Shown here in pieces: positions 48,123-54,698 of a DNA stretch of 64,000 nucleotides. Within the stretch, counting starts at the first letter, position 1, and each line of letters begins with the position of its first letter. The position numbers were made by a program, and so were the translations under genes. The stretch is from a virus. Location: positions 96,001 to 160,000 of the IMG/VR virus record IMGVR_UViG_3300014613_000001; one strand, written 5' to 3'. The notes under the pieces were generated by a model. That model was not told where the DNA came from. It was given only the letters and a program-made list of their open reading frames with translations, and searched no databases.

Positions 48123-48509
48123 GTGATTGAATACTGGGCAGGCGAAGAGCCGGCCCAGCTCCACCGAGTCGGAATCCTCTGGTGGTCAGAGGCCGACGGG
48201 CGGCTCATCGCCCGAGGGGGCTTCGACATGGCCGAAGGCTCGGCCGTTACGCTGACCGTGGTCTCCGACTCCCTCTCCGGGGAGAGGCGTTTCGACGGAT
48301 CCGTCCACCCCGACCAGGTGGACGAGCTCCTTGACGCCCCGGAGGGCTACCCCCTCCGCATCGAAGAAAACTGCGGCCAGGCAGGCGAGACGTGGGCAGT
48401 CGCTGGGCCAGTCCCCCCGGAGTTTTCCTCGATTCCCCCCGGGTGGAGAATCGAGGAAAAGTGGGTGCACGGGCACCCGAGTTCATACTACGTAGTGAAG
48501 GCGATCTAG
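48123..48509 (+). CDS. Hypothetical protein
   Basis: 128-aa ORF. Confidence 0.45.
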   Translation: MIEYWAGEEPAQLHRVGILWWSEADGRLIARGGFDMAEGSAVTLTVVSDSLSGERRFDGSVHPDQVDELLDAPEGYPLRIEENCGQAGETWAVAGPVPPEFSSIPPGWRIEEKWVHGHPSSYYVVKAI

Positions 48510-48515
48510 GTGCGT

Positions 48516-48540
48516 TGAGAGGGCCGAGAGGCCCAAGGAG
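48516..48540 (+). repeat. C-family leader motif (TGAGAG-GGCC-tetraloop-GGCCC-SD), copy C3
   Basis: TGAGAGGGCCGAGAGGCCCAAGGAG. Confidence 0.7.
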
Positions 48541-48546
48541 ATTGAG

Positions 48547-49015: not shown

Positions 49016-50296
49016 ATGACGAGGTACGTGGACCTAGACGCTGCGGCGTCCACATCCCCGCTGCCAGCAGTGGAGGATGCTGTTCGAGCCTTCCTCGCCG
49101 AGTACGGTAGTGTCCACCGGGGGAGTGGGCGCCACAGTAAATTGTCCACGGACGCCTATGACCACGCTCGTCGCGTGATCAGGCGTTTCGTGGGCGCCGG
49201 GGAGGAGGACTACGTCCTCTTCACCGGCAACACAACGGGGGCGATGAACGTCATCGCCCACCACCTCTCCTTCCTTCGGGGAGGGGTGGCGGTCAGCAGC
49301 CTGGAGCACAGCTCCTCGTTGCTGCCCTTCGTGAAAGCGGAGGGCGAGCGGGCGGTGCAAGGCCGCCAATTCGCACTGGAAGAGCTGGACTCTGTTGCCG
49401 AGCAGATCCAGCTCGCGGGTCGAAAGAATGTACACAAGTACATCATCGACCCGTTCCGCGGGATCGACCTGGAGAGCCTGGAAACTCTCCTGTCGACCCA
49501 TAAGACGAAGGCGGTCGTCCTGACCGCGTCGTCGAACCTCACGGGGTACTGCCCCCCAATCCGTGAGGTTGCGCGCCTGGCTCACAGCCACGGTGCGCTG
49601 TTGGTCCTGGACGGATGCCAGTTCGTCCAGCACCACGTCCTCAACATGGAGGCTGAGGGCGTGGACTTCGTGGCCGCATCGGGCCACAAGTTCTATGCCC
49701 CCTACGGGGGTGGGTTTCTGGTAGGGCCGAAGTGGTTCTTCGACCGCTTCTTGCCCTACCAAATCGGTGGAGGCAACCTCCCGTACATCACGGGAGATGG
49801 CGAGTTTCTTCGGTTCAAGATCGAGCTTGCCCATGACCCCGGTACCCCGAACGCAGTCGGGGCCGTGGCCATGGCCGCCGCCCTCGAGGAGATGGAGAAG
49901 ATCGGACTGGACCGGATCTTCTCGCACGAGAAGGCCCTCGCCATGCGGGCGCATGAGGGTCTCAGTTCCATCCCAGGAGTGGAGCTGTACGTAGAACGGG
50001 AGCGGTTGGGCACCGTCGTCCCGTTCAATCTCCGAGGGCAAGACCCCAAAGAGGTTGCCGAAATCCTCTCGACGCAGTTTGACATCGGCGTTCGCGCCGG
50101 ATCGTTCTGTGTCTATGAGGGCGTGCGGCAACTTCTCGGGATCACCCCCGAGGAGGACGCCCGAATCGCCGAGAGGGTTCGCCTCGGTGATACCAGCAGC
50201 ATCCCGGGGCTCATCCGAGCCTCGGTGTGCTGGCACACGCGGACCGAGGACGTGGACCGTCTCATCGAGGCGGTTCGCGTGGTGGCAGGAGGATGA
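49016..50296 (+). CDS. PLP-dependent class V aminotransferase, SufS/cysteine desulfurase-like
   Basis: DAAAS, SVHRG, NTTGA, EHSS, SGHK (PLP lysine), RAGSFC (catalytic Cys loop, cf. RxGHHC). Confidence 0.88.
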   Translation: MTRYVDLDAAASTSPLPAVEDAVRAFLAEYGSVHRGSGRHSKLSTDAYDHARRVIRRFVGAGEEDYVLFTGNTTGAMNVIAHHLSFLRGGVAVSSLEHSSSLLPFVKAEGERAVQGRQFALEELDSVAEQIQLAGRKNVHKYIIDPFRGIDLESLETLLSTHKTKAVVLTASSNLTGYCPPIREVARLAHSHGALLVLDGCQFVQHHVLNMEAEGVDFVAASGHKFYAPYGGGFLVGPKWFFDRFLPYQIGGGNLPYITGDGEFLRFKIELAHDPGTPNAVGAVAMAAALEEMEKIGLDRIFSHEKALAMRAHEGLSSIPGVELYVERERLGTVVPFNLRGQDPKEVAEILSTQFDIGVRAGSFCVYEGVRQLLGITPEEDARIAERVRLGDTSSIPGLIRASVCWHTRTEDVDRLIEAVRVVAGG

Positions 50297-51435
50297 GTGC
50301 CGTCCTCAAGGCGCTGCGGGCCATGCCCGTGAGCGTCAACTGCTACCACGGTGACCCCACCCTCCAGTGGGGCAACACCGTTCAAAAATTGGAGGATCTC
50401 GCTGCCGAAGGCCACACGGGCCCGGTCAGCGTAATCACCAAGGGTGCCCTCGGCCCGGCGAGAGGTAGGAAGCTCGCTGAGCTGAAGGGGAGACTCCCGG
50501 GCCTGCTGGTGATGGTTTCCATCAGCGGACTAGGGAGGGAGTTCGAGAAGGCGGGACACGACCACCGGTACCGAGCTCTCGCCACCCTGCGGGAGGTGGG
50601 GGTCCCCGCCTTCGCGGCTGTCAGGCCGCTGACCCCTCCGTATAACACCACTCCAGAGGTGTTGTACGAGATCTTCTCTCGACTGCAAGCTGTCGGCTGC
50701 GAGACAGCTTGTGTGTCGGGGTTCCGAGGGGACTCATCCCTGATCGAGGCTATGGAGCCGTCGGCAGGGATCGAGTGGGTCTTGCGGGTGAAGCAGATGA
50801 CGGGGTTCGACCTCGTCAAGCGGATCGCCGATCAATGCGGCGTCCGCCTGTTCACCCGTGTGTCCTGTTGTGCGTCCTACCTCACTGGGAGGACTGGGAC
50901 GTACAACCCCTATTGGGGGTCGCCCCAGTTGGTTCGTTGCGAGGAGATCGGCTGTCCGCTGGTCGACTTCTGTGGACCAGTGGCCCCTGACCCAGAGGTC
51001 GTGTCCTGGCTTGAAAGAGTTGGATACGACCTTCGGGTGGAGCAGCGCTGCCAGGAGCGCTGCCGGTTCAGCGCGGACAACCGCCTGAACTGTAAGAGCT
51101 GCTGTACGACCTGCTTCGTGCAGCCGCAGCCCCGGGTGATTGTGCGCAACGCACGAACTCTCGGGGATTTGGCCTTCGTCAGGTTCGTTCTCGGCGGGAC
51201 CCTTGCGGTCAAGCCGGGCATGATTGACGGAGGGGATCGAGACGTTGGGCGAGTCTCGGTTCTGAGTGAGCTCCTTGGGCAGGAGCTCCACTGCATCAAT
51301 TCCTGGTGGGTGTGGGCCACCCGCAAGGAGTCCTGCTTCGGGTGCAGGTACTGTATCAGTACCCTCTACCCGGGGCAGGGCACGGTCGGCTGCCCCCCGG
51401 CTGACCTGGCCGACATGGTGGATAGTCATGTTTGA
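50293..51435 (+). CDS. Radical-SAM-like (SPL-type barrel) protein with C-terminal Cys motifs
   Basis: GDP, VITKG, VSISG, RPLTPPYN barrel motifs; no N-terminal CxxxCxxC; CKSCCTTC and CFGCRYC near C-terminus. Confidence 0.6.
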   Translation: MSAVLKALRAMPVSVNCYHGDPTLQWGNTVQKLEDLAAEGHTGPVSVITKGALGPARGRKLAELKGRLPGLLVMVSISGLGREFEKAGHDHRYRALATLREVGVPAFAAVRPLTPPYNTTPEVLYEIFSRLQAVGCETACVSGFRGDSSLIEAMEPSAGIEWVLRVKQMTGFDLVKRIADQCGVRLFTRVSCCASYLTGRTGTYNPYWGSPQLVRCEEIGCPLVDFCGPVAPDPEVVSWLERVGYDLRVEQRCQERCRFSADNRLNCKSCCTTCFVQPQPRVIVRNARTLGDLAFVRFVLGGTLAVKPGMIDGGDRDVGRVSVLSELLGQELHCINSWWVWATRKESCFGCRYCISTLYPGQGTVGCPPADLADMVDSHV

Positions 51436-52303
51436 ACCAGGAAAGCCGGCATGCCCTATCGCATGCCAGTATTGCTTCATCACGGAGCATGATACCCGGC
51501 GCGCGGTGTGGAACCGCGCTTCCATGGCGGGTGTGAACAAGGCGTGTACCTACGTCAATGTCCCGCCCTGGATTCGCGAGGACGCCGATGCCCAGCGACG
51601 CTTTTCGGTGTTTCCCTGGGACCTGCTCAAAGGTGATGTGGTCGGTTTCACCGCGATCACCGATCCTTGCTGGCCCCGGCTGGAGCCACAACTCCGGGAA
51701 TTCTTGGAGCGGGCCGGGACAGCGGCCAAAATGGTGACGCTCGTCACCAAATGGCCGCTGTCTCGCCGACAGGTTCGGTTCCTGTCCGATGTTCCGAATC
51801 TGTTCCTGGTGATCTCGATCACCGGGAACCCACCCCCAATAGAGGGGGTTCCCGTCTCCAAACACCTCGAAACCCTTGAGAGGTGCAAAGATGCAGGGAT
51901 CCCCTCACTCCCGATCGTGCACCCCTACATCAGTGGGGTGAGCGATCTGGGTTTTCTCCCCAACCTGATTGAGTTGGGGTACGACCAGGTAGGGGTAAAA
52001 GGCATCCGGTACTGCGACGCGCACATGGCGTCGTGGATGCCTTCCCTCTCCAGGGGGGCCTACCGTGGTCGTGAGGACGAGGAGGTGCTGCCAGAAGACG
52101 GCTGGCGCCAGCTCGTCGAGGACGCAGGGTTCACCCTGCGTTCTCCCAAGGATTGGTACCTCGAGCAGGTGTCAACCCTTGGTCCTCACCTAGAACGAGG
52201 TGAAGCGGAGAACCTGGTAGATCAGGTCTTCCGTCTCGCCAACGTGACATCATCGTCGGACGACGCTTCTGTCTGGGAAGCGGCCATTCGACGAAGGATG
52301 TAG
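51428..52303 (+). CDS. Radical SAM protein (SPL-like)
   Basis: CPIACQYC; ITDP; LVTK; ISITG; HPYISG. Confidence 0.8.
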   Translation: MFEPGKPACPIACQYCFITEHDTRRAVWNRASMAGVNKACTYVNVPPWIREDADAQRRFSVFPWDLLKGDVVGFTAITDPCWPRLEPQLREFLERAGTAAKMVTLVTKWPLSRRQVRFLSDVPNLFLVISITGNPPPIEGVPVSKHLETLERCKDAGIPSLPIVHPYISGVSDLGFLPNLIELGYDQVGVKGIRYCDAHMASWMPSLSRGAYRGREDEEVLPEDGWRQLVEDAGFTLRSPKDWYLEQVSTLGPHLERGEAENLVDQVFRLANVTSSSDDASVWEAAIRRRM

Positions 52304-52344: not shown

Positions 52345-52400
52345 CCGCCCCCGCTCCTCGGGGGCTCGGGGCAGTGAGAGGGCCTGAAGGCCCGGAGGAG
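52345..52400 (+). repeat. C-family leader motif, copy C1
   Basis: First 36 nt are 35/36 identical to 53601-53636. Confidence 0.85.
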
Positions 52401-52405
52401 ATGTC

Positions 52406-52651
52406 ATGAAAATAACGTTGAGAAATTCACTCCACAACACGTCCGTCCGCGTCGTCGCTCCCGAGAGCCTCGTGCTCTCTAAGAGCCAGGTCGCCAGGGC
52501 GCGCCGCGCCCTCTGCGGGATGCCCGGGTGCAAGTGCGCGAGCACGGCTCTCGGAACCTACGGCGAGAGTCCCGAGGGATCAGACGGCACCTTCTATGGT
52601 GTCGAGGACCTCTATGACGGTCGCGTTGAGCTGGTCGAGGTGACACGATGA
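52406..52651 (+). CDS. Hypothetical protein
   Basis: RBS GGAGGAG. Confidence 0.55.
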   Translation: MKITLRNSLHNTSVRVVAPESLVLSKSQVARARRALCGMPGCKCASTALGTYGESPEGSDGTFYGVEDLYDGRVELVEVTR

Positions 52652-53600: not shown

Positions 53601-53656
53601 CCGCCCCCGCTTCTCGGGGGCTCGGGGCAGTGAGAGGCCGAGAGGCCCAAGAGGAG
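53601..53656 (+). repeat. C-family leader motif, copy C2
   Basis: Direct repeat of C1. Confidence 0.85.
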
Positions 53657-53758
53657 CTGATATGGCAAGCAAAAGTGGTCTCCTCATCCCGATGGAGACT
53701 CGATCATCTTGCATGATCCACAACATGGTTCGCCAGATACCGAAGTGGGAGAGTCACA

Positions 53759-54265
53759 ATGAGCAGCAAGTACGAGAGCATTGGTCGGGGAACGACGAGA
53801 GCGATTCTGCGTCGTCACGCTAGCAGCGAGGAACAAAGTTTGCAAAGTCCGCAGGATGAAACGAGTGATCAGCTTCGTGAGGAGATGAACTACATATACG
53901 CTGCACTGGATGAAATCATATCGGCGAATGCCCGGGCCCGGCACGAGGGTCGCGACTCAGCTGTGACGCAGCATATGACCGTGCTGGCTCGAGGTGGTTT
54001 TGCCGCGCTCGAGTACGCCCGGACGTATTTCATGCTCCTCAACGATACTCGGATCGATTCCGAGAGGCAAAAGTCCGAACAGGTCAAGAAGGACCGTCTG
54101 CTTCATCAAGCGATGGGCCTTCTGGTCACTGTTTGTGGAAAGGAGCGCGTGCCAGCTGAGTGGAGAAGGGATCTGGCGGCATTCATTGACGAACACGCCG
54201 TCGTCAAGTCAGAGGATTTCATTGACGAACACGCCGTCGTCAAGTCAGAGGATGCCGATGCCTGA
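53759..54265 (+). CDS. Hypothetical protein
   Basis: 168-aa ORF. Confidence 0.5.
   Translation: MSSKYESIGRGTTRAILRRHASSEEQSLQSPQDETSDQLREEMNYIYAALDEIISANARARHEGRDSAVTQHMTVLARGGFAALEYARTYFMLLNDTRIDSERQKSEQVKKDRLLHQAMGLLVTVCGKERVPAEWRRDLAAFIDEHAVVKSEDFIDEHAVVKSEDADA
54182..54253 (+). repeat. Perfect 36-bp tandem duplication (FIDEHAVVKSED x2)
   Basis: TTCATTGACGAACACGCCGTCGTCAAGTCAGAGGAT twice. Confidence 0.97.
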
Positions 54266-54698
54266 CTTGGTAGTGAGGGTTGAAAGTCCTGGCCAGCCCA
54301 AGGAGAGCTACCGGGACAGTCCGTTGACCCAAGAATTATCGTCCATGGATCAGCTTCGGGTAGATGTCGACGACCTGCGGAAGAAGAACGGAAGTCTCAC
54401 GCTGAGAGTTGCTAAACTCGAGAGCCGAACCTCAGGACTGGGCGAAGACATACTGCGCCTATCTGGTTCCCGGGTGCAGTCTCCGATAGGCCGAGCGATA
54501 TTCCTGCTCGTCAGCGTGATTGTCATGGCGGTCTGCATGATCGTCATGGAGATCGCGCTTCTTTTCGCGTTCAGTAGAATCGACTGGGAGGGTTCGGGCG
54601 GCTTTGAGTACATCGTCTACACTATCTGCGGAGCAAGCTGTCTTGCACTCTCCATAGCCGCATGGACCAAGCTCCACGACATGCTCGCAAAGCGCTAG
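54258..54698 (+). CDS. Membrane protein (coiled coil plus two TM helices)
   Basis: AIFLLVSVIVMAVCMIVMEIALLFAF; YIVYTICGASCLALSIAAW. Confidence 0.6.
   Translation: MPDLVVRVESPGQPKESYRDSPLTQELSSMDQLRVDVDDLRKKNGSLTLRVAKLESRTSGLGEDILRLSGSRVQSPIGRAIFLLVSVIVMAVCMIVMEIALLFAFSRIDWEGSGGFEYIVYTICGASCLALSIAAWTKLHDMLAKR

Follow-up and report, generated by a model that had tools for sequence, protein, structure and literature searches.

Three overlapping genes on one strand of an uncultivated phage genome were found to pair a cysteine desulfurase-like enzyme with two radical S-adenosylmethionine (SAM) proteins, one of which is circularly permuted, and by sequence comparison the trio appears to be the minimal form of a conserved, mobile and uncharacterized module. 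The genes, here called g1, g2 and g3, fill positions 49016-52303 of a 64,000-nucleotide stretch of DNA (the window), which represents bases 96001-160000 of the complete 177,773-bp IMG/VR phage record IMGVR_UViG_3300014613_000001. The reading that we favor, at a probability of roughly 0.4, is that g2 and g3 form a two-site radical SAM complex that has its own desulfurase as a sulfur supply and acts on a free nucleotide with sulfur insertion. A preliminary description of the window had proposed an operon for a cysteine desulfurase-like pyridoxal 5'-phosphate (PLP) enzyme and two radical SAM proteins of the spore photoproduct lyase (SPL) type, serving a self-contained phage pathway such as DNA base hypermodification; this interpretation was partly supported by the analysis presented here.

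The overlapping three-gene operon was confirmed. The three plus-strand open reading frames (ORFs) are g1 (P0001, 426 aa; 49016..50296), g2 (P0002, 380 aa; 50293..51435) and g3 (P0003, 291 aa; 51428..52303), with the ATG of g2 at 50293 sharing an ATGA with the stop codon of g1 (4-base overlap) and the ATG of g3 at 51428 preceding the end of g2 at 51435 (8-base overlap). Overlaps of this kind probably reflect translational coupling and were counted in favor of the reading given above.

A cluster loop positioned after the first strand of the barrel is the defining mark of the radical SAM superfamily. The g2 protein was found to depart from this order, as it had no match in Pfam or NCBIfam and no cysteine triad near its N-terminus; its triad was located at residues 348-354, and the order of its parts was permuted compared with that of the relatives P0200, P0203 and P0214. 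A barrel without the first beta/alpha unit is followed in g2 by a Cys-rich insert and then by a C-terminal cluster loop. The relocated cluster motif, CX2CX(aromatic)C, reads C348-F-G-C351-R-Y-C354 (51334..51354, + strand), and C348, C351, Y353 and C354 were invariant in 25 g2 homologues. Eleven cysteines were invariant across the 61 homologues of g2 that were identified, with the invariant columns of the Cys-rich insert (50866..51114, + strand; alignment A2) corresponding to C192; C216, C221 and C227; and C267, C270, C271 and C274. These eight insert cysteines are candidate ligands and could be enough for two four-cysteine auxiliary iron-sulfur (Fe-S) clusters. An apparent LipA-like CX4CX5C spacing in g2 was set aside, as distant homologues have CX2CX5C.

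We conclude from sequence and structural models together that g2 is a circularly permuted radical SAM protein, with the first strand, cluster loop and helix moved to the C-terminus, because a graded series of relatives and the structural alignments agree on this point. A profile search of 1.84 billion representatives identified 471 g2-related clusters, and the relatives of g2 were found to grade from permuted to canonical order: (i) the closest carry CX2CX2C at the C-terminus; (ii) in a second tier (P0199, P0200, P0203, P0214 and others) the CX2CX2C segment precedes the barrel; and (iii) more distant relatives have the canonical N-terminal CX3CX2C. The second-tier segment keeps the K/N-S/T-W-W...C-F/Y-G-C-x-Y-C context, the second-tier barrel opens with the same I-P-V-S-I-N-N-Y-F-G-D-P...Q-W motif as g2, and the Pfam Radical_SAM match of P0203 and P0214 begins at the CX2CX2C motif. 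The AlphaFold2 (AF2) model of g2, with a mean predicted local distance difference test (pLDDT) score of 85.3, comprises a (beta/alpha)-type barrel at residues 1-190, the Cys-rich insert and a final strand-loop-helix. Residues ~1-190 aligned to residues 60-245 of the pyruvate formate-lyase activating enzyme (PFL-AE) chain at Z 9.9, and the g2 barrel aligned after the cluster loop of each known enzyme, starting at residue 60 of PFL-AE, 124 of SPL, 94 of LipA and 143 of Cfr; by contrast, g3 aligned to PFL-AE from residue 28. SPL ranked twelfth among the structural matches of g2. Thus, the assignment of g2 to the radical SAM proteins in the preliminary description holds for a circular permutant, and not for an ordinary member with an N-terminal CX3CX2C and a recognizable Pfam or NCBIfam domain.

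By motif and fold the partner protein, g3, is a radical SAM protein that has diverged and that falls under the broad COG1533/'SPL family' heading. Its N-terminus, MFEPGKPACPIACQYCF, includes a CX3CX2C motif, CPIACQYC (residues 9-16, nt 51452-51475, + strand), in which a tyrosine precedes the last cysteine, and C9, C13, Y15 and C16 were invariant in 27 sequences. When compared with Pfam Radical_SAM (PF04055), P0003 scored 27.0 bits (E 6e-6), under the cut-off of 29.5 bits, while several of its homologues do exceed the gathering score. A search of 5.8 billion proteins returned 131 homologues of g3 at 45-65% identity, nearly all of them metagenomic; a few carry the label 'DNA repair photolyase' (COG1533), a fusion to an adenylate-kinase domain is present in two, and a search for longer fused forms (511-2000 aa) found none. 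The AF2 model of g3 (mean pLDDT 88.7) shows the usual partial barrel of radical SAM proteins, and its best 36 VIA matches (Z at least 8.1) were radical SAM enzymes throughout, led by NifB (Z 11.7, root mean square deviation 3.4, 194 aligned) and including PFL-AE (Z 11.3), SkfB (Z 11.3), SPL (Z 10.8) and viperin (Z 10.6). Because these Z values are tied, the fold of g3 does not single out SPL.

The fold comparison of both radical SAM proteins therefore returned matches of the expected fold that were generic, with no preference for SPL. The JGI label 'DNA repair photolyase' occurs for both g2-like and g3-like proteins, and the nearest clusters of g3 in the ESM Atlas, mostly viral, are auto-named 'SPL family radical SAM'. 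No SPL Pfam model was matched by g2 or g3 at E <= 1, and the family profiles of the two proteins gave nothing meaningful against PDB sequences. A spore photoproduct lyase proper was rejected on the missing model match and on an SPL fold score tied with those of unrelated radical SAM enzymes. What stands of the 'SPL-type' designation is the broad COG1533/'SPL family' label, and the designation is valid in that sense only.

The first gene of the trio encodes a SufS/CsdA-type PLP cysteine desulfurase-like protein, as had been proposed. P0001 matched Pfam Aminotran_5 at E 1.6e-69, and its best PDB sequence matches were cysteine desulfurases/SufS (~1e-45). The best NCBIfam model was SufS (TIGR01979; 4.7e-67), with lower scores for CsdA, encapsulin-cargo desulfurase, DndA and EgtE; the curated cut-offs were not reached for SufS (226.6 bits, cut-off 475.1) or CsdA (154.9 bits, cut-off 607). 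Both motifs of a type II desulfurase were detected on the + strand, including (i) the PLP lysine K225 in S-G-H-K (S-x-H-K motif; nt 49688-49690); and (ii) the catalytic Cys365 in R-A-G-S-F-C (R-x-G-x-x-C loop; nt 50108-50110). An alignment of 14 g1 homologues that adjoin the radical SAM pair in other loci revealed K225, C365, R360, H98, D199 and Q202 to be invariant, and an insertion of ~24 residues (about residues 108-131 of g1) to be common to one subgroup. The g1 protein thus keeps every catalytic residue needed for persulfide formation, yet represents a separate subfamily. SufE, SufU and CsdE were not recognized among the scanned neighbor genes, in which no dedicated acceptor test was made; the fusion of the desulfurase to g2-like proteins described below suggests g2 as the sulfur acceptor. 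A role in Dnd/Ssp DNA phosphorothioation was also considered and rejected, as g1 matched SspA (1e-23) and DndA (7e-22) at the generic desulfurase level only, no DndC/D/E or SspB/C/D partners were found beside the desulfurase, and the adjoining g2 and g3 matched no PADLOC model, pVip included, at E <= 0.01.

Viral, genome and metagenome collections were scanned with the g3 alignment, and 41 loci were identified, of which 40 are non-redundant (a scan of viral contigs with the single g3 sequence returned nothing). A g2-like gene was found to adjoin the g3-like gene in 38 of the 40 loci, and the contigs of the other two end within ~500 bases. The desulfurase was adjacent in 21 of the 40, either upstream or downstream; an adenylate kinase was present in 22, usually between g2 and g3; and a small 3-His cupin was present in 10. 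When the 19 well-flanked loci were considered, g2 was found in every one and a desulfurase or adenylate kinase in 18. Gene fusions join the same partners, with the desulfurase head-to-tail with a g2-like protein in P0191 and P0196 (Aminotran_5 + g2-like), g2-like with g3-like in P0199, and adenylate kinase with g3-like in P0041, P0048 and a gene of L030; in P0264, a canonical relative at greater distance, the partner is MazG. These results bear out the earlier suggestion of a single linked pathway, since the genes recur together far above chance on numerous contigs that are not related, to the point of being fused with one another, and they show g2 and g3 to be two radical SAM proteins that always occur together.

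The accessory genes were examined in the same loci. By its GxPGxGKGTQ, ISxGDxVR and DGFPR motifs, and by best PDB matches that were adenylate kinases only down to 6e-34 (UMP-CMP kinase, 4.5e-26), the kinase is judged from its sequence to be a true adenylate-kinase-family protein. The cupin profile gave no significant PDB sequence match. Cupin and desulfurase co-occurred in none of the 40 loci, and loci of the two types are interspersed on the g3 tree (e.g., cupin at L002:5676-6143 and desulfurase at L008:4626-6002); the two proteins may be alternative suppliers of one function. As a separate observation, a 473-aa antisense ORF (L010:5204-6625, - strand) spans the whole g2-like gene and recurs in L021, L022, L029, L035 and L040; in these six low-GC (~42%) loci its length exceeds that of the sense gene, and it may be due to chance or to closely related contigs.

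The carriers of the module are both viral and cellular. Six of the loci are IMG/VR viral contigs, and in several of these a portal gene and a Mu-F-like gene follow directly downstream. Another nine are from species representatives in GTDB, most of them metagenome-assembled genomes (MAGs) of Patescibacteria (Moraniibacteriota, Saccharibacteria and Paceibacterota), and the genes that flank the MAG copies include those for TyrRS/TrpRS, GyrA, DnaB, RuvB, RuvC, phosphoketolase and NDK; these housekeeping flanks indicate that the MAG copies are cellular. The notion of a self-contained phage pathway therefore survives with regard to the linkage of the genes, but the pathway is not phage-specific. Neither is it a common host operon of known function: a g3-like gene was detected in 5 of 401 evenly sampled genomes (~1%) of the phylum of one carrier MAG (labelled Patescibacteria), and no published description of the module was found in the literature searched, the coverage of which was incomplete and is not proof of absence. 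No match was found among 50,697 deposited phage records, whether by blastn with a 6-kb region or by tblastn with P0003, P0002, the viral-clade homologues of L004, and P0203 and P0233, two relatives of the non-permuted or canonical type. In a maximum-likelihood tree of g3 the viral and cellular copies were intermixed. The copy of the window lies on a long branch and is ~61% identical to its nearest relatives, whose loci have a G+C content of 33-52%, which argues against a recent transfer of this copy. Overall, the module appears by sequence to be rare and mobile and to have been exchanged between phages and cells.

Neighbors at the cellular loci include Csx3, Csx3-AAA, DUF4143/AAA_14, Fic, NYN and HD proteins. 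Csx3 (PADLOC 4e-30) and Csx3-AAA (2e-48) flank the module in eight loci and in two arrangements, with both at L011:4696-5824, L013:9110-10823, L023, L026, L031 and L032 and Csx3 only in L007 and L034. A link to type III CRISPR was unsupported, since no Cas10/Csm1 was found in G003, the tested carrier genome with Csx3 beside the module. When the general Fe-S machinery of five carrier genomes was examined, a NifS/NifU pair was found in two, where the desulfurase of the module is an additional copy; NifU was absent in three, and SufBD was found in none. The rarity, the exchange between phages and cells and the defense-type neighbors suggest that the module serves in virus-host conflict and not in housekeeping.

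In the mechanism that we favor, g2 and g3 would assemble into a single complex that has two sites of SAM cleavage and, on g2, two auxiliary clusters. The desulfurase would hand its persulfide sulfur straight to g2, where it would serve to build the auxiliary clusters or to rebuild them after sulfur donation. The substrate would be a free nucleotide, probably one of adenine, and the adenylate kinase associated with the module may feed it to the complex or re-phosphorylate it; radical C-H abstraction followed by sulfur insertion, to yield a thio-modified nucleotide, would be the most likely chemistry. The preliminary description had listed DNA modification and lesion repair among its options; the insertion or fusion of an adenylate kinase and the fusion of a distant relative to MazG argue for a free nucleotide as the substrate, and not for DNA. 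A bolder version, which we consider unlikely as it stands, envisages a heterocomplex with two active sites that is continuously re-sulfurated and makes a sulfur-containing adenine nucleotide (e.g., a thio-sugar or thio-base) that phages and bacteria of the candidate phyla radiation (CPR) would use against one another; g2 would then be the first recognized circularly permuted radical SAM core, and the product would act as an inhibitor or signal or as a building block that protects.

Several observations weigh against the sulfur-insertion mechanism. The operon of this phage has neither the kinase nor the cupin. The desulfurase is missing from about half of the loci, so sulfur need not enter the product, and in ten loci it is replaced by the cupin and never found together with it, which a sulfur-insertion model leaves unexplained. 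With SufBD missing from the five carrier genomes and NifU from three, the desulfurase could merely mature four clusters. In addition, the fold matches are generic, none of them pointing to a sulfur-inserting enzyme in particular, and all of the mechanistic steps are inferred.

The strongest rival is one that we regard as possible though doubtful. It retains the same complex, limits the desulfurase to building the four Fe-S clusters in hosts that have little general Fe-S assembly machinery or none, and assigns to the complex a viperin-like, sulfur-free nucleotide chemistry, in which dehydration, rearrangement or C-C bond formation would lead to an antiviral or anti-host nucleotide analogue. The dispensability of the desulfurase in about half of the loci and the SufBD and NifU results are as expected of such an enzyme, and the combination of a radical SAM protein with a nucleotide kinase is that of viperin/CMPK2 and of pVip with its kinase. 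The module kinase matched the PADLOC 'pVip-kinase' weakly (2.5e-4), viperin is one of the tied fold matches of g3 (Z 10.6), and the neighbors are of the defense-island type. However, neither g2 nor g3 matched a pVip model, the finding of the desulfurase fused head-to-tail to the subunit with several clusters suggests that sulfur is passed on more closely and continuously than a single round of maturation would entail, and the module brings its own desulfurase even where a generic NifS/NifU pair is present.

A reading in which the pair acts on polymeric DNA or RNA, by SPL-like lesion repair or by post-replicative hypermodification similar to that of phage M6 gp52/gp53, is distinctly unlikely. 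Both proteins do lie in the broad COG1533/'SPL family' neighborhood by JGI label and Atlas cluster name, UDG and Ruv genes are near some of the cellular copies, M6 gp53 has superfamily-level similarity over ~55 residues, and a phage PLP enzyme beside an SPL-like radical SAM protein is the M6 pattern (PMC8989533). Yet tblastn with the ORFs of the M6 gp51-gp54 region found nothing in the phage genome, which thus has no homologues of M6 gp51, gp52 or gp54, and PF00303 (ThyA-type hydroxymethylase) had no match. M6-type thymidine hypermodification was rejected accordingly, the phage having no 5-HMUDK (the 5-hydroxymethyl-deoxyuridine, or 5-hmdU, kinase), no aGPT-Pplase and no hydroxymethylase of the 5-hmdU toolkit. 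Moreover, the PLP enzyme, whose catalytic Cys is invariant, is a desulfurase and not a decarboxylase, the adenylate kinase that recurs as a partner acts on free nucleotides, and SPL is not the preferred structural match.

Least probable, to the point that we give it little credence, is a PLP enzyme acting as a C-S lyase that trims to a thiol the adduct made when the radical SAM pair joins cysteine to a substrate, or a pair that modifies a protein-bound or peptide substrate in the manner of LipS1/LipS2 or of a maturase for ribosomally synthesized peptides with post-translational modifications (RiPPs): a match of P0001 to the EgtE C-S lyase model (3.7e-12), the precedent of two radical SAM proteins cooperating in sulfur insertion (LipS1/LipS2; PMC10332631) and the presence of SkfB and SuiB among the tied fold matches speak for it, but SufS, CsdA and desulfurase models far outscore EgtE, the kinase and MazG links are unsuited to a peptide substrate, and a RiPP precursor is unsupported, as other loci show no conservation of the small ORFs found on either side of the trio in the window, and neither a ligase nor a conserved small ORF resembling a precursor goes with the module.

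The genomic setting of the trio was also examined. The phage record has a 123-bp direct terminal repeat and encodes a primase, RecA, RNase HII, UDG, helicases and a family-A DNA polymerase in two ORFs, as well as ThyX and a gpA-type large terminase; no tRNA or tmRNA genes were found in the 178-kb genome by aragorn. The split polymerase is located outside the window at G000:C1:73354-74944 (- strand; profile positions 2-205 and 234-380), the UDG-superfamily gene at 83184-83630 of the phage record and ThyX at 175640-176149. A DinG/XPD-type helicase (Helicase_C_2, 1.1e-39) and a CxxCxxCC-domain protein of the phage, both members of alignment A4 and encoded in the window or at 160-178 kb of the genome, are further candidate Fe-S proteins and could be clients that the phage desulfurase serves. 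The phage genes neighboring the trio, from 43.5 to 53.4 kb, had no informative Pfam/PHROG match.

The trio lies within a stretch of ~5 kb with a G+C content of 64%, compared with 57% for the genome, and the G+C content at third codon positions (GC3) of g1, g2 and g3 is 0.71-0.79. Directly 3' of the trio is a GC-rich hairpin-plus-Shine-Dalgarno element (52345..52408, + strand; repeat families D1, D3 and D19) of 64 nt, in which hairpins are followed by GGAGG and ATG (fold -58.4 kcal/mol, z -2.1). A second copy, 83% identical, is positioned 1.26 kb downstream at 53601-53664, and the start codon of the next gene closes each copy; with a shorter relative at 48506-48541, upstream of the cassette, the copies bracket the GC-rich cassette that contains the trio. 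Apart from these, a 36-nt unit is tandemly duplicated at 54182-54253 (two copies, 100% identical) within two candidate ORFs that overlap each other (53759-54265 and 53994-54698). Near the trio no sigma-70-like promoter was detected, and the terminator-like sites nearby are weak consensus matches from which the operon boundary is not evident.

Taken together, the sequences point to a new combination of known enzyme kinds, radical SAM and a SufS-like desulfurase, that includes a permuted subunit of novel structure. The family of this subunit, with its cluster unit at the C-terminus, can be followed through relatives that lack the permutation and has a second, canonical radical SAM protein as its obligatory partner, an architecture for which no description was found in the literature searched. 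The fusions to desulfurase and adenylate kinase give a testable hypothesis, namely that sulfur is handed over to a radical enzyme that has several clusters and acts on a nucleotide. The module occurs in phages of uncultivated hosts and in ultra-small CPR bacteria, a setting with almost no enzymology so far. The cassette, rare and common to uncultivated phages and tiny CPR bacteria, probably alters a nucleotide; if the product is indeed a modified nucleotide, it would be a new addition to the short list of antiviral or DNA-protective nucleotides made by radical SAM enzymes.

The closest described phage analogue is the gp52-gp53 pair of phage M6, a PLP decarboxylase and an SPL-like radical SAM isomerase that act in thymidine hypermodification (PMC8989533). 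The module shares with this pair a PLP enzyme adjoining a COG1533/SPL-like radical SAM protein and a remote similarity of the barrel, but the systems are not orthologous (the g3-homologue and g2-homologue profiles scored ~3 and ~9 bits, respectively, against gp53), and the PLP enzyme of the module is from a different family, with a catalytic cysteine. The sulfur-inserting enzymes LipA, BioB, MiaB/RimO and LipS1/LipS2 resemble the module in combining a radical SAM cluster with auxiliary cluster(s), which in the module are predicted, and in their link to a cysteine desulfurase; in the LipS1/LipS2 lipoyl synthase two radical SAM proteins share one sulfur-insertion job (PMC10332631), and LipA and BioB are among the fold matches of the module (Z 9-10). 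Unlike these enzymes, the module proteins have no family-level sequence match to them, the auxiliary cysteine pattern of g2 is different and not fixed in its spacing, the desulfurase is in some organisms fused to the enzyme, and the context is one of nucleotide kinases rather than lipoyl or biotin carriers.

Viperin and pVip, with CMPK2 or in pVip-kinase fusions, are similar to the module in that a radical SAM protein is coupled or fused to a nucleoside monophosphate (NMP) kinase, in the sporadic and mobile distribution, in conflict-type neighborhoods and in a presumed free-nucleotide substrate. The module differs from viperin in having two radical SAM subunits, one of them permuted and with eight extra invariant cysteines, a dedicated desulfurase and a kinase of the adenylate-kinase type. 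SplB shares with the module the superfamily, the broad annotation label and the CX3CX2C of g3, whereas SPL is only fourth among the fold matches of g3 (Z 10.8, tied with NifB, PFL-AE and SkfB). Among the radical SAM enzymes whose cluster motifs are non-canonical, ThiC has a C-terminal cluster-binding cysteine triad with non-canonical spacing. The cluster triad of g2 is likewise C-terminal, not after the first strand, and non-canonical in spacing; in contrast to ThiC, to which it has no sequence relation, its relocation is a clean circular permutation of the canonical layout and can be traced through living intermediates.

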